This document shows positions 1 through 21,233 of a DNA stretch of 25,558 nucleotides, in pieces. The position numbers and the translations under genes were made by a program. The notes beneath the pieces were generated by a model, which was given only the letters and a program-made list of their open reading frames with translations, was not told the DNA's origin and did not search any database. The stretch's first letter is position 1, and the number at the start of each line of letters is the position of its first letter. Source of the DNA: an uncultured Candidatus Peribacteria bacterium (GTDB taxonomy: Bacteria > Patescibacteriota > Gracilibacteria > UBA4473). The stretch covers positions 1 through 25,558 of the forward strand of contig CAZBBI010000001.1 of the NCBI GenBank assembly GCA_964490135.1, given 5' to 3'.

Positions 1-237
1 GTTTTGATTAAAAACAGTAGCTCCCTGAAAGGCACCACGTAAGGTCTCTGCACTACCAGTGTTCCATCCACCAATATCTTGATTAAAGGATGAAGCATTT
101 CTAAAAGTATTGGATAAATGTGTAACCTGGCTTACGTCCCAATTACCTATGTTTTGATTAAATAACGTAGCCCCATCAAAACCGGATAGCAGAAGGGTAA
201 GACTGCTCGTGTCCCAGCCACCAATATTTTTATTAAA
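1..237 (-). repeat. 25-aa DUF285 repeats (3 full copies plus a partial one)
   Basis: Translated by hand: FNKNIGGWDTSSLTLLLSGFDGATL / FNQNIGNWDVSQVTHLSNTFRNASS / FNQDIGGWNTGSAETLRGAFQGATV / FNQN. Confidence 0.85.
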
Positions 238-837
238 ATTAGAAGCACCATTAAATAAGTACCTCATATCTGTAACATTGATTGTATTCCAATTCCAATT
301 CCCGGTACCACCACCTAACGAAGTAGCGCCTCTAAATAAATTATAAAAAGAGGTAATAGCGGAAGGAGGTGTGTCAGTTGCATTTATAACTAAATTAGAA
401 CAACCATAAAAAGAGTTATCCAGTGCGGTCCAATTGGTTCCCCACTGTTAGACTGAAAGTATCTTATCTTTGTCTCCTGCATTGTTAAACACAACTTGTT
501 GGAAGGAACCTGTTATACGAATAGTATAAGTTCCAGCACTACCATAATTACAAGTATAACCAGAAGTCTCTCCAGTGGCTTCATATACACCATTATCATC
601 ACAATCCACATCATAATTAACGCCTAAGCCAACTATTGGTATCGTAAATTCAGTATCAGTAGAAGTCCCAGTATTATCTGTTTGTACAGTGAAAACAAAG
701 TCATCTACTGGGGCGGCAAAGACTGTGTCTACACTAAACACAAAAAATGCCATTAAGAAATATAATATTTTGCTTTTACCCAGTTTTAATTTCTCACGAA
801 ATTGGGTATTTTTAATGCTACGTAGATTGGACATCAT
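1..837 (-). pseudogene. BspA/DUF285-type leucine-rich-repeat surface protein with signal peptide; interrupted by one in-frame TAA at 448-450; runs off the window start
   Basis: The 129-aa ORF ...DKDKILSV is followed by TAA, then the same frame stays open to position 1: QWGTNWTALDNSFYGCSNL...FNKNIGGWDTS...FNQNIGNWDVS...FNQDIGGWNTG, typical DUF285 repeats. N-terminal hydrophobic segment ends TVFA. Confidence 0.8.
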
Positions 838-912
838 AGAAATGGGATTAAAAAATTTCGAAAATATATTAATGAAAGTCTAATAAATTACTAACTTATT
901 AAGCTAAATTTA

Positions 913-2046
913 TTAGGCTTTTAACTTAATGATTTTTTCCCAAGGCAAATCTAAATCATCCCGACCAAAGTGACCATAGGCAGCTGTTTGAGTATAAATT
1001 GGTCGTTTTAAATCAAGATAATCAATAATGGCTCGTGGCCTGAAATCAAATTGGTTTTGCAGTAATTTTGATATTTTTTCGTCAGATATTTTTCCTGTAC
1101 CAAAAGTTTCGACTAGTACGGAAGTAGGTTCTGCTACTCCAATAGCATAAGAAACTTGAATTTCGCATCTGTCAGCTAACTCATTTGAGACAACATTTTT
1201 GGCTAAGAATCTGGTAAAATAAGCCGCAGACCGATCAACTTTTGATGGATCTTTACCAGAAAAAGCTCCTCCTCCGTGTCGTGCAAACCCACCATATGTA
1301 TCAACAATAATTTTACGTCCAGTCAGTCCACAGTCTCCCATAGGACCTCCTATTACAAACTTCCCAGTTGGATTTATATGAAACTTAGTATTTTTGTCTA
1401 TCCATTTTTCACAAATAGGAATTATTACTTCTTTTCTTAAATCCTTGCAAAGTTGTTCGTGAGATACGTCTGGTGCGTGCTGAGAAGAAAGAACAATTGC
1501 TTCAATTCGGGTAGGAATACCATTTTCAAACTCAAATGAAACTTGTGACTTTCCGTCTGGTCGTAGATATTTAAGCGTTTTATTTTTTCTAACTTCTGTT
1601 AATTTTCGTGTTAATTTATGGGCTATTGAAATAGCAATTGGCATTTTTTCGGGAGTTTGATTTATGGCGAATCCAAACATCAACCCTTGGTCACCAGCGC
1701 CTTGTTCATGATTTTCTGATTGATTAACCCCCTGAGCAATATCGGGAGATTGTTCATCAATAGCAGTTAGTACTGCACAAGAATTTCCGTCAAAATTCAT
1801 ATCACCGTGATTATATCCAATATCAATGATTTTTTTCCGAGCAATTTTTTGAATATCAACGTAATCAGCACGACTCGTAATCTCACCAGAAACAACAACA
1901 AGTCCAGTATTTACAAGAACTTCGCAAGCCACACGAGAGTGTTTGTCTTTCGCCAAAAAAGCATCAAGCACACTGTCGGAGATTTGATCGGCGACCTTAT
2001 CTGGATGACCTTCTGTTACGGATTCGGAAGTGAAAAATGTTTTCAT
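913..2046 (-). CDS. metK: S-adenosylmethionine synthetase
   Basis: [19 protein letters not shown] and GGGAFSGKD signatures. Start moved to the ATG at 2046 (MKTFFTSES) because the track's upstream extension lies within the leader terminator. Confidence 0.97.
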
Positions 2047-2069
2047 GTTAACTGTAGAATTATTTAAAA

Positions 2070-2095
2070 TAAAAAAACTCGACAATTTATCGAGT
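2070..2095 (-). terminator. Intrinsic terminator in the metK leader (riboswitch expression platform)
   Basis: Minus strand ACTCGATA-AAT-TGTCGAGT followed by a T run, between the aptamer and the metK ATG. Confidence 0.8.
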
Positions 2096-2120
2096 GAATA
2101 ATTTTTCCTATATAAAGATA

Positions 2121-2210
2121 ATCATCCCGTATGAGTGGAGCACCTTCCTTCAGTTTGAAGCGGTTGCTGATGGTTCGTAGAGTCATACCTCTCCCCATCT
2201 CTAGATAAAT
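2121..2210 (-). promoter_or_regulatory. SAM-I (S-box) riboswitch aptamer, compact variant without P4
   Basis: Minus strand TTATC-TAGAG-ATGG..GAGAG GTATGA CTCT ACGA ACCATC-AGCAACC..AAGGTGCT..TCATAC GG-GATGA. P1, P2 with kink-turn-like motif, the P3 AGCAACC/GGTGCT core and the pseudoknot all pair. Directly upstream of metK. Confidence 0.92.
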
Positions 2211-2218
2211 CTATGTTT

Positions 2219-2247
2219 AATGTACTCTGAAATAAGTTAGGAGTAAA
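2219..2247 (-). promoter_or_regulatory. Putative sigma70 promoter for riboswitch-metK
   Basis: TTTACT-N17-TACATT on the minus strand, ending a few nt before riboswitch P1. Confidence 0.5.
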
Positions 2248-2293
2248 ATCTTTTTTTGGACAGAAATTTATATTCAGTTAAGGTTCGAGCAAA

Positions 2294-3166
2294 ATGTTTT
2301 GGATATTAGCGTTGATTTCGATGTTGGGGTACACAATTCAAGGGACCTTGATGGCTCATTTTATCCGCAAAATTGATCCGTTGTCTATTGGGTTTTATCG
2401 GAGTATTACCTTTTTTATCTCCCTGCTACCACTTCTTTTCTTGGTTGATGTTTCAGAAATTATCGCCATCAAAGATTTTTGGTTTGAAATTTCGATTGCG
2501 GCTTTATTAGGAGCAGCCGCTCAGTGGGCAAGTTTTTGGACTATTAGGTTTTTCTCAGTTGGGATTGCTAGTGCGATCAAGATGGGACTTTTTGTGATTT
2601 TTTCGATTACTCTTGGTGTTTTGTTTTCAGATGAATTTTTAACTCAGGCTCAAGTGTTAGCGGTTATTTTGATTTTGGTTGGAGCAACTGCTTTGGGGAT
2701 TCGAAAAGAAAAAATGCCACACCTTAAACCAGTTGGGTTTTTAGAAGGATTATTGTTTCTTGTCTCAACAAGTATTTTGCTTTCTGTTTCAGTCTTTTTT
2801 GTGGCCAAAGTTTCACGGGAACTTAGTCCTTGGGTATCTGGTTATTTTTGGGAAACAGGGATTGCTGTATTTGCAGGGATTTTCCTTTTATTCCGAAAAA
2901 TATTCACAGGAAAGTCTATCGAAAGAATTTCATTAAAAACCTTTGGAAAGATTTTTTTAACAGCTTGGCCTACTTTACTCGGAACTGGTGGATTTACATT
3001 AGCAGTTAAATACGGACCAGTGGGACTTGTAAACGCAATTAGTGTTTCAGGTATTTTGTTATCGGTAGTTTTGGCTCATTTCTTGTATGGAGAAAAACTA
3101 AAACCAGTCCATTGGAGTCTTATTGGAATAATTATAATAGGAGTAGTAGCGTTGAAGATTTCTTAA
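2294..3166 (+). CDS. DMT/EamA-family transporter
   Basis: 290 aa, about 10 hydrophobic segments in two repeats; C-terminal AHFLYGEKL motif typical of EamA. Confidence 0.85.
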   Translation: MFWILALISMLGYTIQGTLMAHFIRKIDPLSIGFYRSITFFISLLPLLFLVDVSEIIAIKDFWFEISIAALLGAAAQWASFWTIRFFSVGIASAIKMGLFVIFSITLGVLFSDEFLTQAQVLAVILILVGATALGIRKEKMPHLKPVGFLEGLLFLVSTSILLSVSVFFVAKVSRELSPWVSGYFWETGIAVFAGIFLLFRKIFTGKSIERISLKTFGKIFLTAWPTLLGTGGFTLAVKYGPVGLVNAISVSGILLSVVLAHFLYGEKLKPVHWSLIGIIIIGVVALKIS

Positions 3167-3175
3167 ATTAAAAAT

Positions 3176-4111
3176 TTATAATTTATAAAACTTCTGCCCC
3201 CACTTGATAGCTTTTTCAAGTCCATCATTTAGATTAGTTTCAGGTTTCCATCCAGAAATTTTTTGAAATTTTTTGCTATCAAGACAACTGCGTAAAAGTT
3301 CACCAGGAAGGAGTTTTCCGGTATCTGGTTTATTTGAGATTTTTAATTTTTCTACAATTTTTTCGTATAAATCCTTGATAGAAGTTTCTATCCCGGTTCC
3401 AAGATGGAAACAGCCAGAAATATTTTTTTCTGTAGCAGCAAAATGTGCGCTAGCAACATCTTCTACAAAAATGAAATCTCGAGTTTGTTCACCTTTTCCA
3501 AACAAAATAATTGGTTCGTTTTCTAGTAAATTTTTTATAAAAATAGAAACTACGCCTGCCTCGCTTTTTGGCGTTTGGTGCGGTCCGTAAACGTTTGCGT
3601 AACGAAAAACAGTTTTTCCGTATCCATATTTTTTTGCAAAAAAGCCTAAATAATGTTCTCCTGAGAATTTCGAGATTTTATAAGGAAGATTTAGTGTTGG
3701 GGTTTGTGTTTCAACCGTGGGAAGTTCGTAATCTTCCTGATTTATTAGCCCAGCCGTTGAAGCAAAAACTACGTGGGTTACGTTGTTTTTTCCAGCATTT
3801 TCAAAAATATTTATAGATCCTAAAATATTTTGTTCGGCATCAAAAACAGGTTTACTAATAGAATCTCGGACAGAAATATGAGCAGCGTGATGTGAAACAA
3901 TATCTGGGTCGAACTCTGAAAAAACTTTTTCTACAAAAGATTTATCTTCGATATTCCCTTCAAATATTTTTATATTTTTATCCAAAAAAGTTTGTTGTCC
4001 ACTCGAAAAATTATCCAAAACAGCGACCTCAAAACCTTCTTTATTGTATTTTTTCGCAATATTAGAGCCGATAAATCCGGCTCCACCAGTAATAAGGATT
4101 TTCTTTTTCAT
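3176..4111 (-). CDS. NAD-dependent epimerase/dehydratase (UDP-glucose 4-epimerase-like, extended SDR)
   Basis: GGAGFIG Rossmann motif, YKISK (YxxxK), RYANVYGP, RDFIFVED; start moved to the ATG at 4111 (MKKKILITG). Confidence 0.9.
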   Translation of the reverse strand: MKKKILITGGAGFIGSNIAKKYNKEGFEVAVLDNFSSGQQTFLDKNIKIFEGNIEDKSFVEKVFSEFDPDIVSHHAAHISVRDSISKPVFDAEQNILGSINIFENAGKNNVTHVVFASTAGLINQEDYELPTVETQTPTLNLPYKISKFSGEHYLGFFAKKYGYGKTVFRYANVYGPHQTPKSEAGVVSIFIKNLLENEPIILFGKGEQTRDFIFVEDVASAHFAATEKNISGCFHLGTGIETSIKDLYEKIVEKLKISNKPDTGKLLPGELLRSCLDSKKFQKISGWKPETNLNDGLEKAIKWGQKFYKL

Positions 4112-4160
4112 TACTCTGATTGTAATGATTTTGTCTAAAAGTAAACTGAAAACATATTCC

Positions 4161-4880
4161 ATGAAACAAGAAATAACAAAACACTTTAGGCGATTTGAGG
4201 TAAAATACCTTATTCCAGAGAATTATGCTGATAAAATCATTCCATCAGTATTAGAAAACATGGAATGGGACGAATATGCCAAAGAAGAACAGTATTATAA
4301 ATGTTATTCCTTGTATACAGACGGACCAGGTCTTAATTCTTATAAAGCAGTAATTAATGGTGATTTATTTAGAAAAAAACTTCGTTTTCGTCTTTATGAC
4401 AAAAACGGGGAATTTGGTTTTTTGGAGATAAAAAGGAAAAAACATGGAGTTATAATAAAAGATAGAGAACGTTTGAGTGTGGATGATTTTAAAGGTTTTT
4501 TAAAAGACCCCATGTCCCTAAAGGTACAGAATTGGGACAAGGATTTCATCGAAGAAGCTATTGCTTGGCATTGGGAAAACAAACTAGAAGCAAATGTTTG
4601 GGTTGGTTGTAAGCGAAAACCTTTTACCCATTCTCTAAATTCTCAGTTTCGCGTTACATTTGATTATGATTTGGTTTTTTCAGAAATTGAAGCAGATGGA
4701 TATTCATCTATAAATGAACAAAAGAAATATGAGAAAAAAGTTATAATGGAGGCAAAATTTATAGAAAAAATGCCACTTTGGTTTAAAAATATAATAGATA
4801 TCTATAAACTAGAATCATCTGGTTTTTCTAAGTATTGTACTGGTATAGAAACACTTAATTTACAACAAAAAAATGTTTAA
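4161..4880 (+). CDS. VTC/polyphosphate polymerase (CYTH-like) domain protein
   Basis: RFEVKY (ExK), RKKLRFRLY, FLEIKRK, FRVTFD, IMEAKF, SKYC motifs; likely start ATG 4161 (MKQEITKH). Confidence 0.85.
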   Translation: MKQEITKHFRRFEVKYLIPENYADKIIPSVLENMEWDEYAKEEQYYKCYSLYTDGPGLNSYKAVINGDLFRKKLRFRLYDKNGEFGFLEIKRKKHGVIIKDRERLSVDDFKGFLKDPMSLKVQNWDKDFIEEAIAWHWENKLEANVWVGCKRKPFTHSLNSQFRVTFDYDLVFSEIEADGYSSINEQKKYEKKVIMEAKFIEKMPLWFKNIIDIYKLESSGFSKYCTGIETLNLQQKNV

Positions 4881-5550
4881 TTTAGAAGAAATTGTCGATT
4901 TGACGCTTAGTCCTCAGCAAATACTACTTGTTTTGTTTACTTCAGCTTTGGCGGGGTTTTTCATAGCTCTTGTTTACAAAAAAACACATAGAAACCTTTC
5001 CTATTCAGCGTCCTTCACGAGTACATTATTATTAGTTACAATTATTACAGCAGTTGTTTTGCTTGTTATTGGAGGAAACGTTGCCCGAGCAATTGGTATC
5101 TTTGGAGCATTTTCTGTAATTCGGTTTCGAACTTCTATCAGAGATCCACGTGATTTAGTTTTTATTTTTATGGCGTTGGTTTCGGGATTTGCAATTGGCG
5201 CCGGGGCGATATGGGTAGCTGCTTTTTCTATTCCATTTTTGCTGATTTTAGTTTTGATAATTTATCACACTGGATTTGGGGAACTACCAAAATTTGATTA
5301 TATATTGCACTGTAAGACAGATACAAAGACATACAAAGAAGATAATTTTGCTCAATTTTTGAAAAAATCTTTTCGTGAACATCAACTCTTAAATGTAGAA
5401 TCTCGGGAAAAAGGAAAAGTTCTGATTCTGAATTTCAACATTAGGCTTAAACCGAAAAACTCAATTGATAAAGTACTCAAAAACTTACACCAACACCCAG
5501 GAGTACTGGAAGCTTACGCCGTCAGATCCAAAAACGATTTAGATTTCTAA
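4873..5550 (+). CDS. DUF4956 family membrane protein
   Basis: IGGNVARAIGIFGAFSVIRFRTSIRDPRD is the DUF4956 signature; overlaps the stop of the VTC gene, its usual partner. Confidence 0.85.
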   Translation: MFNLEEIVDLTLSPQQILLVLFTSALAGFFIALVYKKTHRNLSYSASFTSTLLLVTIITAVVLLVIGGNVARAIGIFGAFSVIRFRTSIRDPRDLVFIFMALVSGFAIGAGAIWVAAFSIPFLLILVLIIYHTGFGELPKFDYILHCKTDTKTYKEDNFAQFLKKSFREHQLLNVESREKGKVLILNFNIRLKPKNSIDKVLKNLHQHPGVLEAYAVRSKNDLDF

Positions 5551-5564
5551 AAAATATTTCAAAC

Positions 5565-6584
5565 ATGAAACCCATTAACATTAACATTCCGGCAGAAAAA
5601 ACTCAGTATGATATTGATTTTTTAAATGAGTTTTCGGAGCTTGAAAAATCTTTGATGGCTCAGATTGGGGATCGTCAATATTTAATGATAACTGATGAAA
5701 ATGTTCTGGAAAAAAGCCCGTTTTTTACAGAAAATTTAAAAAGATTTGGAGATAATTTATTAGTTTTGCCAGCAGGAGAAGAACAAAAAACTTGGGATAC
5801 AGCGAAAAAAATATTGGATAAAGCGTTTGAGCTGAACCTTGATCGACAGGCGGTTTTGGTTGCTGTTGGGGGAGGTGTTTATGGAGATTTGGTTGGATTT
5901 GGGGCTTCTGTTTTTATGAGAGGAATACCTTTTATTCAAGTACCAACCACACTTTTGGCAATGGTAGATAGTTCTGTGGGAGGGAAAACAGGATTTGATT
6001 GTGAACATGGGAAAAATCTTATTGGTTCATTTCATCAGCCAGAAAAGGTGCTTTGTTGTCCAACATTTTTGGAAACTCTTCCTGAAGTTGAGGTAAAAAA
6101 TGGACTTTGTGAAATGATAAAACACGGGATTATTACTTCTCCTGATCATTTTTCAAACTTGCGAAAAGTAGAAGGACTGGATTTAAAAACTATTTCAAAA
6201 TTAATTCCAGATTCAATAAATATTAAAAAAGAAATCGTAGAAAAAGACGAAAAAGAAGCAGGAATTCGTGGTTATCTAAACTTAGGACATACTTTTGGTC
6301 ATGCGATTGAACATCTTTCTAATTTTAAAATCCCACATGGTCAGGCGGTAGCGATCGGATGTGTGATGGCGGCACAATTTGCTGCAGAAAAAGGTATTTG
6401 TGATTGGGATTTAGTTGATCAGATTGAGGATATCTTTAATCATTTTGAAATCGAACTTGAATGTGATTTTGAGGAAGCCTCAATTTTTGGAGCGATGACT
6501 CATGATAAAAAGAAAAAAGGAGGGAAAATTCGTTTGATTCTACCGCATAAAATTGGAAAAGTTGATTATTTTGATTTGGATTAA
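5565..6584 (+). CDS. aroB: 3-dehydroquinate synthase
   Basis: GGGVYGDLVGF, PTTLLAMVDSSVGGKTG, LNLGHTFGHAIE, HGQAV motifs. Confidence 0.95.
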   Translation: MKPININIPAEKTQYDIDFLNEFSELEKSLMAQIGDRQYLMITDENVLEKSPFFTENLKRFGDNLLVLPAGEEQKTWDTAKKILDKAFELNLDRQAVLVAVGGGVYGDLVGFGASVFMRGIPFIQVPTTLLAMVDSSVGGKTGFDCEHGKNLIGSFHQPEKVLCCPTFLETLPEVEVKNGLCEMIKHGIITSPDHFSNLRKVEGLDLKTISKLIPDSINIKKEIVEKDEKEAGIRGYLNLGHTFGHAIEHLSNFKIPHGQAVAIGCVMAAQFAAEKGICDWDLVDQIEDIFNHFEIELECDFEEASIFGAMTHDKKKKGGKIRLILPHKIGKVDYFDLD

Positions 6585-6620
6585 TTAGTAATTTATCCGA
6601 CATTCCTTAAAATTTGAGTA

Positions 6621-7955
6621 ATGGGAAAAAAATTTAACACATCGACGCCGTCTGGGTTTCCAGAATTTTCACCTGCTGAAGAACGAGTTAGACAGCAATG
6701 GATAGGAGTTATTGCTGAAACTTTTAGCTCTTATGGATTTGCTCCAATAACTACGCCTCTTGTGGAACGAGAAGAAAATTTACTTGGAAAGGGTGGTAAT
6801 CCAAAAGAAATCTATGCACTCAAACGAGTGATGGATGGTGATGGAGATAGTTCTCATTCGGGGAATACTTTGCGGTTTGATCACACGGTTCCGTTGGCTC
6901 TTTATGTGGCACGACACCAAAACGAACTAACTTTTCCTTTTAAGAGATATGCGATAGGTCCAGTTTTTCGGGGGGAGCGAGCACAAAAAGGACGGTTCCG
7001 GCAATTTGATCAATGTGATATTGATATTATTGGGATGGAAAATCTTTCGGTGGCAAATGACGGACTTATGCCGGCGATTATTATAGAAATTTTTAAAAAA
7101 TTATTACCAAATAATGAGTTTGTTGTTCGGATAAATAATCGGAAAATTTTGTTGGGATTTTTTGCTGATTTAGGCGTGTCAGCAGATGAAGCAAAAAAAG
7201 TTTTAGATATAGTTGATGATCTAGAAAAACTACCAAAAGAAAAAATAGTTGAGCAATTATTAGAAGTTGGAATTGACGGAGAAAATATAGATAAATTATT
7301 TGATTTTATAAATATCAAAGGAAGTAATGATGAAGTTGTGACAAAGCTCAAAGAGATAGGGGGTTGTGAGAGTTTTTGCGAAGGTGTTGCAGAACTTGAA
7401 GAGGTGGTTTCAACACTTAACAACATGTCTGTTAACGAAAATAATTTTGTTATAGATTTGCGGATTGCGCGAGGTCTTGATTACTATACTGGTACAGTCT
7501 ATGAGACAACTTTAATAGGTCATGAAGGGTTGGGGTCAATTTGTTCGGGAGGACGATATGAAGATTTGGCTTCTGTTTTTACTAATAAAAAAATGCCTGG
7601 AGTTGGAATTTCTATTGGACTTACGAGGCTACTTAGTCAGTTGCTAGAGCTGGATATCTTAGATGATGCAATGGTGTCGCATTTAGATATTTTATTTGTT
7701 CCGGCTGATGAGAACCAAGCTGGAAAATGTCTTGAACTAGCTTCAAAACTAAGAAAAGCAGGACATAAAACGGATGTTTATCTTGAAAAAAAGAAGCTAA
7801 AAAAGAAACTTGATTATGCAGATAAAATTAAAGTGCAATACGTTTGCATTATCGGCGAGAACGAGCTGGCAGACAGAGTTGTGCAAATTAAGAATATGAA
7901 AACAGGAGAAAAAGAAAATGTGAAAGACTCAGATGTTTTGGCATTTTTTGAATAA
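6621..7955 (+). CDS. hisS: Histidine--tRNA ligase
   Basis: LRFDHTVP, FRGERAQKGRFRQFDQ, RGLDYYTG, GGRYEDL motifs and C-terminal anticodon-binding domain. Confidence 0.97.
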   Translation: MGKKFNTSTPSGFPEFSPAEERVRQQWIGVIAETFSSYGFAPITTPLVEREENLLGKGGNPKEIYALKRVMDGDGDSSHSGNTLRFDHTVPLALYVARHQNELTFPFKRYAIGPVFRGERAQKGRFRQFDQCDIDIIGMENLSVANDGLMPAIIIEIFKKLLPNNEFVVRINNRKILLGFFADLGVSADEAKKVLDIVDDLEKLPKEKIVEQLLEVGIDGENIDKLFDFINIKGSNDEVVTKLKEIGGCESFCEGVAELEEVVSTLNNMSVNENNFVIDLRIARGLDYYTGTVYETTLIGHEGLGSICSGGRYEDLASVFTNKKMPGVGISIGLTRLLSQLLELDILDDAMVSHLDILFVPADENQAGKCLELASKLRKAGHKTDVYLEKKKLKKKLDYADKIKVQYVCIIGENELADRVVQIKNMKTGEKENVKDSDVLAFFE

Positions 7956-7991
7956 AAGATTGTTTTTTGTTTGTTATTCCTGTATGGTTAT

Positions 7992-8010
7992 GCGTACCTA
8001 AATACGTACA
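7992..8010 (+). promoter_or_regulatory. Putative YefM operator: two GTAC palindromic cores 12 bp apart
   Basis: GCGTACC (GTAC at 7994-7997) and ACGTACA (GTAC at 8006-8009), just upstream of the antitoxin ATG; same spacing as the TGTACA-core repeats of the E. coli yefM-yoeB operator. Confidence 0.6.
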
Positions 8011-8014
8011 AATA

Positions 8015-8266
8015 ATGACAATAGTTTCTGCAACCGATTTTCGAAAAAATATGTCGGAATATATTCAGCAAACGAGGGATCGTCGACAACCAATAACTAT
8101 TACAACACAAAAACAGGAAGCAATGGTTATGCTACCCCTAAAACAATGGGAAAGTTTTCAAGAGACTCTTTATTTGATGTCGTCGCCAGCGAATAAATCT
8201 AGGTTAGATACTGCTATTTCTGATATAAGAGCAGGGCGATTTAGTACTCATAATTTAGATATATAA
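8015..8266 (+). CDS. yefM: Phd/YefM family antitoxin
   Basis: MTIVSATDFRKNM..., ESFQETLYLMSSPANKSRL matches the YefM C-terminal motif; adjacent to a YoeB toxin; start moved to ATG 8015. Confidence 0.9.
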   Translation: MTIVSATDFRKNMSEYIQQTRDRRQPITITTQKQEAMVMLPLKQWESFQETLYLMSSPANKSRLDTAISDIRAGRFSTHNLDI

Positions 8267-8267
8267 A

Positions 8268-8525
8268 ATGATTATAGCTTTTCATAGTAGAGCTTGGGAA
8301 GACTATTGTCATTGGCAAAAGTATGATAAAAAAATCCTCAAAAGAATTGGACAGCTTTTGAAAGACATAAAAAGAAGTCCATTTTCGGGAAAAGGAAAAC
8401 CAGAACTGTTAAAGTATAATTATAGTGGATTTTATTCTAGAAGAATTACAGAAGAGCATCGATTAATATATACAATTAAAGAGGATACTATTATTATTGC
8501 ACAATGTCGTTTTCATTATGAATAA
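8268..8525 (+). CDS. yoeB: Txe/YoeB family mRNA interferase toxin
   Basis: AWEDYCHWQ, PFSGKGKPELLK, YSRRITEEHRLIY, CRFHY. Confidence 0.93.
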   Translation: MIIAFHSRAWEDYCHWQKYDKKILKRIGQLLKDIKRSPFSGKGKPELLKYNYSGFYSRRITEEHRLIYTIKEDTIIIAQCRFHYE

Positions 8526-9174
8526 CTATAAAATTCGTCGAAGTTCTCGAGCAAAAAAAATAAAACTAGTAGCAAAACCCGAAGGGATAGAGTTAGTTTT
8601 GCCACAATTTGTTCCTGAAATTATGGGGAAAGCTTTTGCGTCTTTACATAAAGATTGGATAGAGAAGCATTCTAAAAAATCAAAAAATGCTTTGCCGTCA
8701 ATTCCAGTAGAAGATGGAGCGGCTGTTTTTTTTATGGGAGAAGCTAAGTTTCGATTGCAAATAAAGGAAACAAATAAAAAATCTTATTATGAAAAAAGGT
8801 CAGAAGACTTAGTTATTTATTTAAAGACAAAAAATAAAAAAGAAATTTTGGATTTAATAGAAAAATTTTACAGAGAAGAAGCCAAAAGATATCTTCAAGA
8901 AAGAACAGAATCTTTTTCTAAAAAGCTAGATACTTCCTTTGGGAGAATAACTATTCGTGGGCAAAGTACTCGGTGGGGGAGTTGCAGTTCCAAAGGTAAT
9001 TTAAGTTACAATTGGAAAATTATGAAGGAGCCGTGTGACGTGATAGACTATCTTGTGATTCATGAGCTTTGTCATCGATTAGAAATGAATCATTCTAAGA
9101 AATTCTGGAAATTAGTTGAAAGTCTTGATCCTGATTATAAAATTCATAGAAAAGCATTAAATGGAAAATATTAA
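8518..9174 (+). CDS. YgjP-like M48/DUF45 (SprT-like) zinc metallohydrolase
   Basis: QSTRWGSCS, IDYLVIHELCH, MNHSKKFW; likely start ATG 8518, overlapping the yoeB stop. Confidence 0.88.
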   Translation: MNNYKIRRSSRAKKIKLVAKPEGIELVLPQFVPEIMGKAFASLHKDWIEKHSKKSKNALPSIPVEDGAAVFFMGEAKFRLQIKETNKKSYYEKRSEDLVIYLKTKNKKEILDLIEKFYREEAKRYLQERTESFSKKLDTSFGRITIRGQSTRWGSCSSKGNLSYNWKIMKEPCDVIDYLVIHELCHRLEMNHSKKFWKLVESLDPDYKIHRKALNGKY

Positions 9175-10240
9175 ATTTAATTTCACAAAAAACATAGATG
9201 GGATTTTGGTTACCACGCCAGAAAACATCAGATGGATTTCCGGATTTAAGGGTAGTTTTGGCTTAGTTCTTTTGAAGAAAAATGGTGAAAAAATTCTTAT
9301 TTCAGATGGTCGGTATGCAGAAAATGCGAAAAGAACTCTTAAGGTGAATTGCGAAGCAAGAGAGAATGCCCTGGGGCAGACTAAAGAGTGGAAGTTCCAA
9401 ATTTTTGATAAAGATTTTAAGAAAAATTTTGGCGAAAAAGTTTCAGGATCGTTTTGGATAGAGGATTTGGCATCTCTTGCCGATTTGAAAAAATATAAAA
9501 AGTTTTTTCCCAATATTAAATTTTTTCCAAAAACAAATTTCTTAGAAGAAAAAAGATCAATAAAAACAGAAATTGAGATTGATAAAGTTAGAATAGCTCA
9601 AAATCATGTAGATGATTTACTTATACCTTTTTTGAAAACTAAACTGAGAGAAAATGTTACGGAAAAATTACTTGCGTTTGAATTAGAACACGCAATTAGA
9701 GATAACGGGAAATTTGATATTAGTTTTGATGCGATTGTGGCATTTGGAGAAAATTCGTCGCTTCCCCATCATCATCCTTCAGAAAAAAAACTAAAAAAAG
9801 GAGATAATATTTTGATAGATTGTGGTGCAAAATTTGAAGGTTATCATTCTGATATGACTCGGAATTTTGTTTTTGGGACGGCTAAAGCCGATTATATAAA
9901 TAAATTTAATATTTGTTTAAACGCACAAAAAAAAGTGTTAGCTCAATATAAAGTTGGGAAAAAAATAAAAGATTTGGAGAATTTTTGTCGTAAAAGTTTA
10001 GGGGAAGAAGAAAAATATTTCACACATTCACTGGGGCATGGTGTGGGGCTTCAAATTCATGAAATTCCAAGTATTTCCATCAAAAGCAAAGATAAACTTA
10101 TTGAAAACCAAATAGTTACCTGCGAACCAGGTCTTTACTATCCTGATAACTTTGGGATTAGAATAGAAGATCTTTTGGTTATTAGGAAAAACGGTCCAGA
10201 GATTTTATCACAAACTAAAAAAGAATTAATTCTTTTTTAG
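9161..10240 (+). CDS. M24 family Xaa-Pro aminopeptidase/dipeptidase
   Basis: HHHP, IDCGAKFEGYHSDMTR, HSLGHGVGLQIHE, EPGLY, GIRIED metal-ligand motifs. Confidence 0.92.
   Translation: MENIKFNFTKNIDGILVTTPENIRWISGFKGSFGLVLLKKNGEKILISDGRYAENAKRTLKVNCEARENALGQTKEWKFQIFDKDFKKNFGEKVSGSFWIEDLASLADLKKYKKFFPNIKFFPKTNFLEEKRSIKTEIEIDKVRIAQNHVDDLLIPFLKTKLRENVTEKLLAFELEHAIRDNGKFDISFDAIVAFGENSSLPHHHPSEKKLKKGDNILIDCGAKFEGYHSDMTRNFVFGTAKADYINKFNICLNAQKKVLAQYKVGKKIKDLENFCRKSLGEEEKYFTHSLGHGVGLQIHEIPSISIKSKDKLIENQIVTCEPGLYYPDNFGIRIEDLLVIRKNGPEILSQTKKELILF
9341..9378 (+). repeat. 38-nt GC-rich two-hairpin repeat, copy 1 (in-frame within the M24 peptidase gene)
   Basis: AAGGTGAA TTGC-GAA-GCAA GAGAGAA TGCC-CTGG-GGCA; 32/38 identical, ungapped, to 20293-20330. 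Confidence 0.8.
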
Positions 10241-10346
10241 TTTTTCACAGGTTAACACAAAAAACCAACATCAAAAAAAATCAATCTAAGTGCTCTAGAC
10301 GAGATTTTTTAAAGGTATAAAATTAATAAGAAAAATTAATATAAAT

Positions 10347-11036
10347 ATGATGTCATATTCGCATAACTTCAAAAATACCAAGATTAGAGAGAAATTTAAA
10401 TTGGGTAAAAAAATATCTTCGATTTCAAAAAAAATTATGTATGGAACACTTATAGGAGTTCTTTTTGTAAATGTAACGTTTGCCTATAATATCTCTACTC
10501 CAAGAGTGGCAGTCGGGTCTTTTTTGACAAAATCATTATGGGATTTGTTAATTGATGATTTGTGGGGTCTTATGATGGAAATGGATACAAATAATGCGAA
10601 TATCTCAACAAATACTGCGAATATTGCAACAAATACTGCAAATATAGGTGCCAATGTACCAACTGGAGCGGTTATGCATTTTAATTTATCAAGTTGCCCA
10701 TCTGGTTGGTCATCTTTGGTGGCGGCAGAAGGGCGATACATGGTAGGGTTACCTTCCGGTGGTAGTTTGGGAGCCTCTGTGGGAAACGCTTTAACGAATT
10801 TAGAAAATAGAGAAGTAGGGCGACATACTCACGTGGTGAATGATCCAGGTCATGCTCATGGAATCGAGCAAATAGTTGGTACCGGTGGTGTTAATTGGGG
10901 TATATCTAGGAATCCAAGTGGAACAACTTTTAATGATTCCTCAACGGAATCTACTGGAATTGTTCTTAGTAATACTGGGGATATAAATGGAACAAATGCC
11001 CCCTATCTACAACTTTTAGTGTGTGAGAAAGACTAA
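10347..11036 (+). CDS. Predicted secreted protein with heptad stalk repeats and a phage tail-collar/tail-fibre-like C-terminal domain
   Basis: Signal peptide ending VTFA; TNxANIx repeats; VPTGAVMHFNLSSCPSGW, GRY, HTH/HAH and NAPYLQLLVCEK are typical of tail-collar/fibre-tip domains. Confidence 0.65.
   Translation: MMSYSHNFKNTKIREKFKLGKKISSISKKIMYGTLIGVLFVNVTFAYNISTPRVAVGSFLTKSLWDLLIDDLWGLMMEMDTNNANISTNTANIATNTANIGANVPTGAVMHFNLSSCPSGWSSLVAAEGRYMVGLPSGGSLGASVGNALTNLENREVGRHTHVVNDPGHAHGIEQIVGTGGVNWGISRNPSGTTFNDSSTESTGIVLSNTGDINGTNAPYLQLLVCEKD
10587..10649 (+). repeat. 3 x 21-bp tandem coding repeat (TNNANIS TNTANIA TNTANIG)
   Basis: acaaataatgcgaatatctca / acaaatactgcgaatattgca / acaaatactgcaaatataggt. 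Confidence 0.85.
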
Positions 11037-12080: not shown

Positions 12081-12773
12081 ATGAGCATAAATAAAAAAAT
12101 AATAAAAATATCAATTTTGGTTATTTTATTTTTTTTGATTACCACTTCAATGTGGGCAATTAATAGTATTCAAGAAGGATTTAGAGGCTCTGTCATAAAA
12201 CAAGAAATTGATGTCCATGGAACCTGCAAAAATGTTCAAGCATCTGGGACAAAAGAATATTTTATTCCTACTAATCAAAGTATAGAATGGACAAGTTTCT
12301 TAGCGCATCCACCTGCTGATATAATTATCTCACCATGTTATACTTATATATGGAAAGTTGGAGGCTATGGAGCATGTTCTAAATCTTGTGGAGGAGGTGT
12401 CCAATACCGATCAGTTTGGTGTCAGAGAAGTGATAGTACAACTGTTGCCGATAGTTTTTGTGGAGGTGGAAAGCCCGCAACAAGTAGAAGTTGTAATACA
12501 GCAGCTTGTTGTTCTAATAGGAATGTAAGTCTTGGAACTAATGGTGGGACCTGTTCTACTGCCTGCAGCAACATAGGTCAAAATTGTTCTTCCACTAGAC
12601 ATGAAAACTGGGGACAGCAAGGATCTCATTGGGGACCTTGGGATCCTGGGTGTGGATATGCGGTGCGAGGTTGGAGTGGTGACTGTGGAAGTATGCCAGG
12701 AAAAACTAGTTGTGGAAGCAATATGGACAGAGTAACTGTAGGATCGGCTACTTGTTATTGTTCTTGCAGATAA
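12081..12773 (+). CDS. Predicted secreted Cys-rich protein with a thrombospondin type-1 repeat
   Basis: Signal peptide ending SMWA; WKVGGYGACSKSCGGGVQYRSVWC...C...P...C...C is an ADAMTS-like TSP1 pattern; further Cys-rich C-terminal domain. Confidence 0.8.
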   Translation: MSINKKIIKISILVILFFLITTSMWAINSIQEGFRGSVIKQEIDVHGTCKNVQASGTKEYFIPTNQSIEWTSFLAHPPADIIISPCYTYIWKVGGYGACSKSCGGGVQYRSVWCQRSDSTTVADSFCGGGKPATSRSCNTAACCSNRNVSLGTNGGTCSTACSNIGQNCSSTRHENWGQQGSHWGPWDPGCGYAVRGWSGDCGSMPGKTSCGSNMDRVTVGSATCYCSCR

Positions 12774-12961: not shown

Positions 12962-13510
12962 ATGGCAACATCTAAAGAAAAAAAACAATCTCAACTTACC
13001 GCTTTGGAAGAAAAGTTTAAAAATGCAGAAGGTATTGCATTTGTTAATTTTTCTGGGCCAACAGTAAATGAAGTACAGGAGGTTCGACGAGAGTTACGAG
13101 AAAATGGTATGACTTATACTGTTATCAAAAAAACTCTTATCGCTCTTGCTGCCAAAAACATGAAGGTCGCTGAATTTTCATCAGACGATCTAAAAGGAAT
13201 TGTTGCAGTTATTACATCTCAATCAGATGCTATCGCTCCAGCAGCAGCTATTAAAAAACTTAAAAAAGATTTCTTCAGTAAAGAAACTAAAACCGCTAAA
13301 TTTGATTTTTCTGGTTCAGTTTTTGAAGGAAAATTTCTTGATTATGAAGCTACGGCTATACTAGCTGAAACTCCAACAAAAGAAGAGTCTTATGCAAAAT
13401 TCATTGCAACTCTTCGTCACGGGCCAAAAGGTATTCATTCTATGCTTACCCATGGTCTTCGTGGAATTACGCTTTCACTTAAGGAAGCGGATAAATATGC
13501 TTCAGCATAA
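12962..13510 (+). CDS. rplJ: 50S ribosomal protein L10
   Basis: K-K...L, VRRELRE, VIKKTL motifs; upstream of rplL. Confidence 0.93.
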   Translation: MATSKEKKQSQLTALEEKFKNAEGIAFVNFSGPTVNEVQEVRRELRENGMTYTVIKKTLIALAAKNMKVAEFSSDDLKGIVAVITSQSDAIAPAAAIKKLKKDFFSKETKTAKFDFSGSVFEGKFLDYEATAILAETPTKEESYAKFIATLRHGPKGIHSMLTHGLRGITLSLKEADKYASA

Positions 13511-18527: not shown

Positions 18528-19472
18528 ATGAAGAAACTTAAGCGAAATGTATTTCTAGGTCTAAAAGAGTTTTTTTGGGGAAAAAAACATTTTCCTAGTA
18601 ATATAATTGTGACAGCTGCACATGGTAGTTATAAAATACCACTTTCTATTTTTCCAAAATTATCATCTTATTACAAAACCTCACCACGGTTATTGTTGAA
18701 TTTTTCTGACTATGGAACGAAATATTTAATAGAAAATGTTCCGTCAGAACAAAAGGTTATTCCTCAATATGGGAGGCTTATTGGAGATACAAATAGGGTC
18801 AAGGATTCTCCAGAACTTATACGTTTTAAAGATTTTGGTGGGAATAGGATTTTTTCTGAAAAATTCGAAAAAAGACTTACAACGTCTTGGTTTCATGCGT
18901 TTTGGTTAAATAAAATTCTAAAATTATCTTATAAACCTTTTTATAATAAAGTTTTTGAGGCGATTGAAAAAGCTGCTAAAAATAAAGAGAACGATGGAAA
19001 ACCAATATTTCTGATAGATGTGCATGATACTGGGAATTTGATACTTGGTTCTACAAAAAAAACAGACCGAAAAAGGAAAGGACTTTTCCAAATGCCAAAA
19101 GTTGTTATATCGAGTGCTCCAGATGAACAAGTTGATGAGGATTGTTTTGGTACAGCTCCAGAATATTTAACTGAGATCTTTCAAGAAAACCTAGCGAATA
19201 AACTAGGACTTGAACTAAGCGAAGTAAAAATAAATCATTTGTTTTACGGGGGGAATGTTGTCCGTTTTTTTGGTAATCCAAATAAAAACGATAGATTGAA
19301 AAAAATTTTGGGAAATAAAAAAATTTATGCAATTCAGATTGAATTTGATCGTGGGTTGTATATGAAAGAAGAGAGTCAACGTCCCATAAAATGGAAAGTT
19401 AAATCAATTAAAAGTGCTTTAATGGAGACGTTACGGGAACTTGAAAGTTCGATTATTAGTGTGGAGAAGTAA
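18528..19472 (+). CDS. N-formylglutamate amidohydrolase-like zinc hydrolase
   Basis: TAAHGS, LIDVHD, IQIEFDRGLYM motifs. Confidence 0.7.
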   Translation: MKKLKRNVFLGLKEFFWGKKHFPSNIIVTAAHGSYKIPLSIFPKLSSYYKTSPRLLLNFSDYGTKYLIENVPSEQKVIPQYGRLIGDTNRVKDSPELIRFKDFGGNRIFSEKFEKRLTTSWFHAFWLNKILKLSYKPFYNKVFEAIEKAAKNKENDGKPIFLIDVHDTGNLILGSTKKTDRKRKGLFQMPKVVISSAPDEQVDEDCFGTAPEYLTEIFQENLANKLGLELSEVKINHLFYGGNVVRFFGNPNKNDRLKKILGNKKIYAIQIEFDRGLYMKEESQRPIKWKVKSIKSALMETLRELESSIISVEK

Positions 19473-19474
19473 AA

Positions 19475-19838
19475 GCTCTTTTTGCGTAAGCCGAGTTTTG
19501 TTAACTATATCATTTATCTTACTCCCGAAAATTGCTTTTCGGTTTCTAGCCGCGAGACAAAATATTAGTCAAAGCTGGAATAATACAACTCTTAATATTT
19601 TGGCCACTCGCGTTTCCACACCTTGAGTTTTAAATACTTCAATCTTGCGAATGAAGCACTACCGAGAATGACCTCGATAAAATTTCATCGACCCCCCGCC
19701 GAAGCGGGGTCGTATATTTTCTGCTTCACTTTTCCTATCACGCTTACACGTGATGATCGGCTGTTAACCGTAAAGTCTTTATTCATGTGGCTCGGACTTT
19801 CCTCCCCACAGATGTGAGGCGATATATACAAAAAGAGC
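19475..19838 (-). ncRNA. rnpB: RNase P RNA (type A)
   Basis: Minus strand GAGGAAAGTCCGAG and AAAACTCGGCTTA (P4 halves); P1 GCTCTTTTTG/CAAAAAGAGC; P2 TATATC/GATATA; P12 with a cUUCGg loop; P18 CCGAAAA-GCAA-TTTTCGG. Confidence 0.96.
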
Positions 19839-20750: not shown

Positions 20751-21233
20751 ATGCAAGAGGATATGGTGATTCCAGCAGTGCCAGCAGATTTTGAATATCC
20801 TACAAATGTAGAATATTTATCTGATTCAGCAGGATATACAACTGGTGGTTCAGGTCTTTCTGTAAACACAGTGGCGTCTCCTGATATTACAACGATTCAA
20901 AACTTGGAATTAATGGATCTAGTGCAAATGTTTATTGTTTATGCTTTTATTATAGCGGCAGCTTTATCAGCTGTTTTTATTTTTGTTGGAGGTGTTTCTT
21001 TTATACTTTCAGGGGGAGAAGATGAAAAAATAAAAAGAGCTATTAATACCATTAGATATGCTATTATTGGATTAATTGTGACTATTCTTAGTTTTACTGT
21101 TGTTACTATTATAGGAAGAATGTTTGGATTAAATTTCTTGGATTATCTTTCTTATGGACAGATAAGAGAATCAATTGAGAGATTGGTTAAAACAGGAGAA
21201 AAGCCTAGTGGTAATTTTGATATTCAGAGATAA
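20751..21233 (+). CDS. CPR-type pilin-like membrane protein (TrbC/VirB2-like)
   Basis: Two-helix hairpin VFIFVGGVSFILSGGEDEKIKRAINTIRYAIIGLIV matches the pattern GG..I.S.G...K...A...I..A.IGL. Confidence 0.7.
   Translation: MQEDMVIPAVPADFEYPTNVEYLSDSAGYTTGGSGLSVNTVASPDITTIQNLELMDLVQMFIVYAFIIAAALSAVFIFVGGVSFILSGGEDEKIKRAINTIRYAIIGLIVTILSFTVVTIIGRMFGLNFLDYLSYGQIRESIERLVKTGEKPSGNFDIQR

Follow-up and report, generated by a model that had tools for sequence, protein, structure and literature searches.

From the 25,558-nt contig CAZBBI010000001.1 (assembly GCA_964490135.1) of an uncultured Candidatus Peribacteria bacterium, analysed over its whole length and referred to as the window in the following, two exported proteins can be deduced that have unrelated mature parts but start with closely similar leaders of 22 residues, each placed directly in front of a signal peptide of ordinary type. 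One leader belongs to a surface protein with DUF285/PARCEL repeats (gene 1) and the other to a 229-aa secreted protein (gene 2), and about a dozen distinct copies, these two included, were found in salt-lake metagenomes. From the sequence comparisons presented here, the best reading of the leader is that of a young, lineage-restricted extension of signal peptides. Surface proteins of ultra-small uncultured bacteria are thought to mediate attachment to their hosts and, to our knowledge, conserved add-ons to signal peptides have not been described for these organisms.

Two leaders in front of Sec-type signal peptides

Leader 1 is encoded by 22 codons at positions 772..837 of the minus strand (MMSNLRSIKNTQFREKLKLGKS) at the 5' end of gene 1, and leader 2 by 22 codons at 10347..10412 of the plus strand (MMSYSHNFKNTKIREKFKLGKK) at the 5' end of gene 2. 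Over the first 21 residues, that is MMSNLRSIKNTQFREKLKLGK at 837..775 (minus) and MMSYSHNFKNTKIREKFKLGK at 10347..10409 (plus), 13 positions are identical in an alignment without gaps, and the DNA identity over the 22 codons amounts to 48/66. Back-translation of the motif KNTxx(R/S)EKxKLGK into a degenerate DNA pattern resulted in exactly two matches in the window, corresponding to both leaders, compared to none in 100 dinucleotide-preserving shuffles, so that the likeness is not a matter of chance.

Both leaders continue in frame into a hydrophobic stretch. In gene 1, this stretch (...KSKILYFLMAFFVFSVDTVFA|AP) ends with TVFA at position 715, and the rest of the signal peptide at 715..771 (minus) comprises the hydrophobic h-region KILYFLMAFFVFSV and the c-region DTVFA, with a cut by signal peptidase (SPase) I predicted by inspection before AP. 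In gene 2, the corresponding stretch (...KKISSISKKIMYGTLIGVLFVNVTFA|YN) ends with VTFA at 10484, and the complete ordinary Sec signal peptide is located at 10413..10484 (plus) with the sequence ISSISKKIMYGTLIGVLFVNVTFA|Y. Divided by inspection into charged n-region, h-region and c-region, the signal peptides read KSK-ILYFLMAFFVFSV-DTVFA|A in gene 1 and KKISSISKK-IMYGTLIGVLFV-NVTFA|Y in gene 2; here and below, all cleavage sites are predicted ones, read by rule from the sequence. The leaders themselves are strongly basic, with a net charge of about +5 in both cases, and do not contain a hydrophobic sub-region. AlphaFold places residues 1-24 outside any secondary structure, at low confidence (mean predicted local distance difference test, pLDDT, below 50 over residues 1-20).

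Further copies in salt-lake metagenomes

Scanning of metagenome contigs from JGI with the DNA pattern revealed only one further gene bearing it, present on two contigs (L006 and L007). This third copy (leader 3) reads MMSHLHNFKNTHISEKFKLGKK-LITIISLSVFLLAFTA|C and is followed by a cyclophilin-type peptidyl-prolyl isomerase (PPIase), which is predicted to be a lipoprotein of the SPase II type, with its signal peptide divided by inspection into KK-LITIISLSVFLL-AFTA|C, including a lipobox. Leader 3 shares 59/66 nucleotides with leader 2 and has a net charge of about +4. By inspection, the three fully read carriers all conform to the pattern of Sec-type signal peptides, which is defined by a positively charged n-region, an h-region of 7-15 residues and a c-region with either small residues at -3/-1 or a lipobox Cys. 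The similarity of these three genes begins exactly at ATGATG, with unrelated upstream regions. From the copies, the consensus M-M-S-x-(L/S)-(H/R/L)-x-(F/I)-(K/R)-N-T-x-(I/F)-(R/S)-E-K-(F/L)-K-L-G-K-(K/S) is obtained.

The window is found in many runs annotated as salt lake metagenome, none of the runs containing the locus being an RNA run. When the leader DNA was aligned to the Logan contigs of six of these runs (X1-X6) at a likeness of at least 80%, queries with leaders 2 and 3 matched 7-9 contigs per run over the leader only, the sequences diverging on both sides. Leader 1 is the sole copy of its DNA subtype at this threshold in run X1, and most of the remaining ones show DNA identities of 89-100%. 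The depths of the copies co-vary over the six runs, with values of about 4-7x in X1, 4.4-5.7x in X2 and 2.3-4.2x in X4-X6. This joint movement of the contig depths across runs fits one population genome.

Every copy readable at its 5' end opens with ATG, and ATGATGTC is found in seven of eight. Besides the three full copies, five further N-termini could be read (MMSPSHG.., MMSLLLDFR.., MMSYLRDF.., MMSPLHV.. and MILYLHCFG..). Within ten codons past the leader, four of these five run into hydrophobic sequence (ILLSIGLLSF, LFSLTAISLF, LLVFIFSFFA and LLGLFLSFIP), while the fifth shows a charged n-region first (KYVFRKNIIM), as does gene 2; generally, the h-regions differ among the copies. Of all eight copies read downstream, seven were counted as passing directly into a hydrophobic stretch. 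Most of the remaining carriers seen are short genes arranged in tandem clusters. On a 4099-nt contig of run X1, for example, three copies are located, two of them arranged in tandem at a distance of 876 nt and the third oriented divergently. A 4150-nt contig of the same run carries two copies 581 nt apart, one of which is identical to the cyclophilin leader at 66/66 positions and has different flanks.

Much of what an earlier sequence-only reading of the window had stated is thus borne out. The pair of leaders with 13 of 21 identical residues in front of Sec-type signal peptides was re-read from the sequence, the codon differences that it quoted (TCC/TCA, CGT/AGA and CTG/TTG) are all present, and the mature parts of the two proteins are indeed unrelated, as DUF285/PARCEL (PF03382, E 1e-45) is identified in the first and no Pfam family in the second. 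It had named the absence of further carriers as a reason to give up the idea, and the motif does recur, with the cyclophilin gene on the JGI contigs and a total of about 12 copies, leader 1 counted, in the salt-lake runs; where these could be read, they are N-terminal and nearly all precede signal peptides or hydrophobic stretches. Likewise, the third secreted protein of the window, encoded from position 12081, carries a plain signal peptide (MSINKKIIKISILVILFFLITTSMWA) and no leader, as it had noted.

A counterpart of gene 2 without the leader

The closest homolog of gene 2 (P0002, 67% identity) is found in the metagenome-assembled genome GCA_054036475.1 in a syntenic position, the shared gene order being YgjP-like, M24 peptidase, gene 2, thyA, rplJ, rplL, aroE and gap. 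Even the intergenic DNA upstream of gene 2 aligns with that of the ortholog up to the start codon. It includes a promoter-like element, TAGACG-16-TAAAAT at 10296..10323 (plus), deduced from its match to the consensus and its conservation in the ortholog, from which transcription likely starts about 17 nt upstream of ATGATG.

The ortholog starts with ATG AAA AAA TTT CCT TCA ATC TCA..., encoding the signal peptide MKKFPSISKKILYGTLISFLFISMSFA|Y, and gene 2 of the window with ATG-[57 nt]-AAA AAA ATA TCT TCG ATT TCA... Consequently, the block absent from the ortholog comprises exactly 57 nt or 19 codons (MSYSHNFKNTKIREKFKLG), and the signal peptide is intact in both genomes. Judged from this pair of loci, the leader is a separable and dispensable module that was gained or lost precisely and in frame. 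Moreover, it is not required for export as such, because the ortholog lacking it keeps an intact signal peptide. Within the 20.6 kb of the sister genome examined (locus L004), no copy of the leader was found.

The presence of the leader in only one of the two orthologs, together with the near-identity of most copies in DNA, indicates that it has been moved, lost or homogenised recently. The view of the sequence-only reading that the leaders do not stem from recent DNA duplication is therefore half right. It holds for leader 1, which is old relative to the others (dS of about 1 or more, see below), but most of the other leaders have 89-100% of their DNA in common, and the leader is an insertion/deletion between orthologs.

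Distribution beyond the salt-lake population

Searches of other data did not extend the family. In 185,579 GTDB species genomes, the degenerate DNA pattern gave a single match, located out of frame inside a Clostridia open reading frame (ORF) and thus due to chance. Two relaxed patterns did not match any viral contig of IMG/VR, so that the leader is not phage-borne in this collection. A word-indexed protein search with the alignment of the two window leaders returned two candidates, none of them scoring, but the index needs several shared 5-mers and is thereby insensitive to such a motif. Similarly, a two-leader profile run with HMMER against 1.84 billion cluster representatives gave no hit at E ≤ 0.001, which is uninformative for so short a motif, the more so as representatives at 50% identity can be leaderless relatives and gene 1 itself is called from Met29. 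A hidden Markov model of three leaders did not reveal a further copy in six-frame translations of the loci examined. In other organisms, the full-length homologs found for both window proteins begin with plain signal peptides, and none bears the leader. In the data searched, the leader family is, by these pattern and profile comparisons, restricted to the salt-lake population. The motif string had no match in the searchable literature.

Comparison with known signal-peptide extensions

The conserved YSIRK-G/S, KxYKxGKxW and ESPR elements each mark a distinct handling of secreted proteins, and the SVM signal of phytoplasmas as well as the leaders of variable lipoproteins of mycoplasmas are conserved signal peptides on variable secreted proteins. 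The leader would act like such an extended signal peptide, yet by comparison it belongs to none of these families, as its N-terminal peptides did not match any NCBIfam model at E ≤ 1 or any Pfam model at E ≤ 10, those for KxYKxGKxW, YSIRK, ESPR, twin-arginine translocation (Tat) signals and SVM included.

KxYKxGKxW (TIGR03715; Pfam KxYKxGKxW_sig) is likewise a conserved motif in a basic n-region preceding a Sec hydrophobic core, and both elements occur on proteins with differing mature parts. The loose resemblance that the sequence-only reading had seen, however, comes down to [FY]KxGK (FKLGK here versus YKxGK), as the curated models do not match and the leaders have E and I/L/S where the motif has its first K and its W, respectively. 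In addition, its cargo consists of serine-rich adhesins, glycoproteins of Gram-positive bacteria that the accessory SecA2/SecY2 system exports, whereas the carriers found here are not serine-rich and include a lipoprotein PPIase, and the bacterium does not belong to the Firmicutes. Genes of an accessory Sec system were not seen in the roughly 45 kb visible, made up of the 25.6-kb window and the 20.6 kb of L004.

With the YSIRK-G/S signal (TIGR01168; PF04650), known from surface proteins of staphylococci and streptococci, the leader has in common that a conserved motif removed with the signal peptide (as predicted for the leader) is present on a subset of exported proteins, where YSIRK-G/S alters where or how a precursor is secreted and not whether it is. 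In contrast, there is no sequence likeness or model match, the leader is wholly N-terminal to a complete n-region while YSIRK lies within the n-region, and the LPXTG cargo typical of YSIRK-G/S is not evident here.

In architecture, ESPR (PF13018) of type V secreted proteins is similar as well: an extension of about 20-25 residues precedes a normal signal peptide and stays conserved on changing passengers, without being needed for targeting itself, and it presumably modulates the kinetics of translocation. ESPR, however, has its own charged and hydrophobic N1/H1 sub-regions and is known from proteobacterial autotransporters and two-partner secretion proteins; the present block lacks a hydrophobic sub-region, and neither a Pfam match nor autotransporter domains in the cargo were found.

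The phytoplasma SVM signal (PF12113) and the mycoplasma lipoprotein leaders share with the present one the near-identical N-terminus on small, clustered secreted proteins in a reduced, AT-rich genome and an evident spread at the DNA level. In these systems, conservation covers the entire signal peptide and frequently the 5' untranslated region (UTR), whereas here it is limited to the block before the n-region; h-regions, cleavage types and upstream DNA differ among the copies and a Pfam match to SVM is missing. Finally, a Tat signal peptide does not apply, as leaders 1 and 2 have only one R and leader 3 has an S in place of the twin arginines and TIGR01409 did not match, nor does a type IV prepilin leader, as KLG is followed by K-K/S, E at +5 is missing and the SPase I or II site lies past the h-region.

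Probable translation of the leader

Several features of the sequences make it very probable that the leader is translated. All copies align without gaps and do not contain in-frame stop codons. Conserved residues are encoded by synonymous codons, namely Ser3 by TCA/TCC/TCT, His6 by CAT/CAC, Phe8 by TTC/TTT, Asn10 by AAT/AAC, Thr11 by ACC/ACT, Arg14 by AGA/CGT and Leu19 by TTG/CTG. For the 22 codons, nonsynonymous (dN) and synonymous (dS) substitution rates estimated with NG86 are 0.25 and 1.05 between leaders 1 and 2 (dN/dS 0.24), 0.21 and 2.33 between leaders 1 and 3 (dN/dS 0.09), and 0.095 and 0.23 between leaders 2 and 3 (dN/dS 0.41). This range of 0.09-0.41 is consistent with the proposal of the sequence-only reading that a conserved peptide module is under selection at the peptide level.

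The start context also conforms to the other genes of the window. A Shine-Dalgarno sequence was found at none of the 21 gene starts inspected (for example, those at 12962, 13570 and 20002), genes for ribosomal proteins included, the upstream regions being simply A/T-rich. Because of this lack of Shine-Dalgarno sequences at the inspected starts, an ATG in an A/T-rich context represents a normal start here. The promoter and the upstream DNA which gene 2 has in common with its ortholog extend right up to the ATG and were counted in favour of translation. The same applies to gene 1, whose public gene call (P0121) starts at Met29 and skips the leader; this start would result in MAFFVFSVDTVFA, which lacks a charged n-region.

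RNA folding around the leaders is no better than that of shuffled sequences (z-scores of 0.22, -0.50 and 0.88), and an explanation of the leader by RNA structure was rejected for this reason. As a separate observation, the rare ACC codon of Thr11 (10% of Thr codons) and the next bases can pair with TGGGT of Leu19-Gly20. The resulting ACCCA/UGGGU stem of 5 bp is present in all three folds (10377-10409, plus; 775-807, minus; 157-189 of L007) and is thermodynamically non-significant; according to this modelling, it could be behind the invariance of rare codons or could be a coincidence.

Possible role and alternative explanations

We regard as the best explanation, and with moderate confidence, that the leader is a translated N-terminal extension of ordinary Sec and lipoprotein signal peptides in about a dozen genes, whose basic nature would change the handling of the preprotein. 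It directly precedes what appear to be normal n-, h- and c-regions ending in an SPase I site (TVFA|A and VTFA|Y) or a lipobox (FTA|C). From these downstream cleavage sites, we infer that the leader is removed by the signal peptidase together with the signal peptide, so that it would act only before or during translocation. As a disordered, strongly basic 'pre-n-region' it might alter the affinity or targeting to SecA, the signal recognition particle or the membrane, delay release, or route the cargo to a particular site or partner. By analogy with the extensions discussed above, the leader thus probably tunes or routes export. Judged by their predicted products, the carriers are functionally diverse, comprising a surface protein with PARCEL repeats, a secreted protein resembling tail fibres, a lipoprotein of the cyclophilin type and small secreted proteins encoded in clusters.

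Some findings weigh against this explanation. The dN/dS values derive from only 22 codons, the number of copies was counted on fragments of metagenome contigs and not in a closed genome, one carrier, the DUF285 gene, is broken by a nonsense codon, and the ortholog of gene 2 manages without the leader, which is hence unnecessary for export as such. Furthermore, codons 13-22 are near-identical in most copies and each of the three full copies retains ACC (10% usage) and GAG (18%), both of them rare codons; part of the conservation may therefore reside at the DNA level or may simply be recent. In most copies, codon 19 reads TTG, and textbook signal peptides would result from a start at this codon (MGKKLITIISLSVFLLAFTAC; MGKKISSISKK...), the one of gene 2 being just one residue longer than that of the ortholog, while (T)ATGAT represents a weak -10-like hexamer. 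Taken to the extreme, these points describe a block that is not translated at all but is a DNA or RNA cassette, in which a -10-like TATGAT is followed by a 5' UTR of about 45 nt and translation starts at the TTG/CTG of codon 19 to give MGKK signal peptides. The TATGAT matches do overlap ATGATG in both window genes, the GGT codon is, like ACC and GAG, invariant in the three full copies, and the small ACCCA/UGGGU pairing is possible in each of them. Nevertheless, this view is considered improbable. Promoter-like matches are not enriched over shuffles (3 observed versus 1.5-1.7 expected), the base preceding ATGAT varies (T, C, A or G), codon 19 of leader 1 is CTG and not TTG, and a conserved real promoter lies upstream of ATGATG. 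The frame is open in all of the about 12 copies, with neither indel nor stop, variation falls on third positions of conserved codons, and one variant (ATG ATA TTA...) retains the first ATG directly after a TAA; in addition, Shine-Dalgarno sequences are not used in this genome and the RNA folds do not exceed those of shuffles.

If the leader is translated, it might still lack a function and represent a near-neutral tag that was spread among genes of exported proteins by illegitimate or homologous recombination, kept alike by gene conversion and tandem duplication, and tolerated since the signal peptidase removes it. In favour of this, the cassette ends with AAA AAA as most signal peptides begin with ATG AAA AAA, copies of 89-100% DNA identity are embedded in unrelated flanks, carriers occur in tandem clusters, the block is present or absent between orthologs with the signal peptide unchanged, and the family is confined to one population, 185,579 species genomes giving only a chance match and JGI data one further gene. 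We consider a functionless tag rather unlikely, because synonymous sites of leader 1 are saturated compared to leaders 2 and 3 (dS of 1.05 and 2.3) and yet 13 of 21 residues are kept (dN/dS 0.09-0.24), which argues for long-term purifying selection on the peptide. Moreover, the length is invariant and decayed copies were not seen, though the block is dispensable for export, and its repeated fixation on unrelated cargo, among it a housekeeping PPIase, suggests a benefit. A bolder version of the translated extension takes up the mobility: since the ortholog indel and the 66/66-identical copy with different flanks suggest insertion, the leader might be a self-contained cassette actively copied onto 5' ends, between ATG and the MKK n-region, and might define an undescribed export or sorting route with a lineage-specific recognition factor in a bacterium of the candidate phyla radiation (CPR) type, which we consider a doubtful proposition. 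Least probable is what the sequence-only reading had concluded, namely a sorting signal by which adhesins, as a class, would be directed to a special secretion system or a site on the surface. Adhesin-like domains are present in both window carriers, which are surface or secreted proteins, and the [FY]KxGK core loosely recalls KxYKxGKxW; however, the cyclophilin PPIase lipoprotein is a carrier too, the others are mostly short clustered genes, and the adhesin-like exported TSP1 protein (12081) as well as a 622-aa repeat protein in L006 that has a signal peptide are without leader. The plain signal peptides of the homologs that the two window proteins have in other organisms and the lack of accessory Sec genes in the visible 45 kb also speak against it.

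As an extension of signal peptides, the leader offers a tractable case, being a sharply bounded module on about a dozen cargo proteins of both the SPase I and the lipoprotein type, and with the natural ortholog lacking it, gain or loss and the consequences are directly comparable. Even if functionless, it would clearly illustrate how a short coding segment can spread to the starts of several genes within one genome.

The two carrier genes of the window

Gene 1 occupies positions 1..837 of the minus strand (PF03382, E 1e-45; TIGR02167) and runs off the window; in L008 (4482-6533) it continues to more than 684 codons in a read-through translation. An in-frame TAA at 448..450 (minus) cuts the DUF285 gene after codon 129 (GAA to TAA, ILSV*QWG); at this place, (L/V)(T/S)(I/V)EQWG is found in homologs and in the second module of the gene itself. 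At least 554 further codons follow the TAA without another stop, and the TAA is fixed in contigs of four runs as well as in three ENA assemblies. Gene 1 would be either a pseudogene of very recent origin or a gene that has been split into a secreted stub of 88 residues and a remainder without signal peptide. An alternative genetic code was rejected, as TAA also ends 22 of the 26 ORFs tabulated for the window. The homologs P0122 and P0123 possess ordinary signal peptides with the end AFA|AP at the same place. For annotation, this gene illustrates that a public call at an internal Met has cost one carrier both its leader and its n-region.

Gene 2 (10347..11036, plus) encodes the 229-aa secreted protein, of which the C-terminal 125 residues or so are widely conserved. 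The designation as tail-collar-like, given by the sequence-only reading, can be retained only tentatively. One PHROG match to a phage tail fibre was obtained, which is weak (E 1.7e-4), whereas a sequence search of the PDB was empty and the AlphaFold model, itself of low confidence (pLDDT 65.6, predicted template modelling score 0.31), had no significant Foldseek match.

Genomic surroundings

The window has a G+C content of 34%. As a hint short of a classification, a T4SS_pilin protein (see below), the missing Shine-Dalgarno sites and the small secreted genes in clusters point to a bacterium of the Patescibacteria/CPR kind. Genes identified by Pfam encode, besides the DUF285 surface protein, VTC and DUF4956 proteins, AroE, Gap, a CorA-like transporter, a GGDEF protein and a thioredoxin-reductase-like flavoprotein, and metK, aroB, hisS, thyA, rplJ, rplL and rpsP were assigned by inspection of translations and synteny with L004. 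The leaderless secreted protein at 12081..12773 (plus) is a Cys-rich TSP1-domain protein of 230 aa (TSP1_ADAMTS, PF19030, E 4.5e-12); its gene is missing from L004, although this sister locus is otherwise syntenic, and the TSP1 domain is mostly eukaryotic. Also not found at the corresponding place in L004 is a YefM/YoeB type II toxin-antitoxin pair (PF02604, E 5e-21; PF06769, E 9e-38), located at 7967-8525 (plus) between hisS and the YgjP-like gene.

Upstream of metK, a SAM-I riboswitch (RF00162, 53 bits) is located at 2119-2211 (minus), and the listed TTG start of metK at 2085 is, compared to the N-termini of MetK proteins, probably too far upstream. Similarly, of the adjacent and overlapping genes for the VTC-domain (PF09359) and DUF4956 membrane proteins at 4044-5550 (plus), the first has a listed TTG start (4044) that overlaps the end of an epimerase gene on the opposite strand, the real start probably being an internal Met (MKQEITKHF). 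A full-length bacterial RNase P RNA of class A (RF00010, 126 bits) lies at 19471-19838 (minus) between an FGase-like gene and rpsP. At 20751-21233 (plus), a 160-aa T4SS_pilin protein (PF18895, E 6e-8) is encoded, and L004 has a DUF87/T4SS-DNA_transf ATPase; by domain content, this combination hints at a type IV secretion or pilus-like apparatus, which is common in CPR bacteria.

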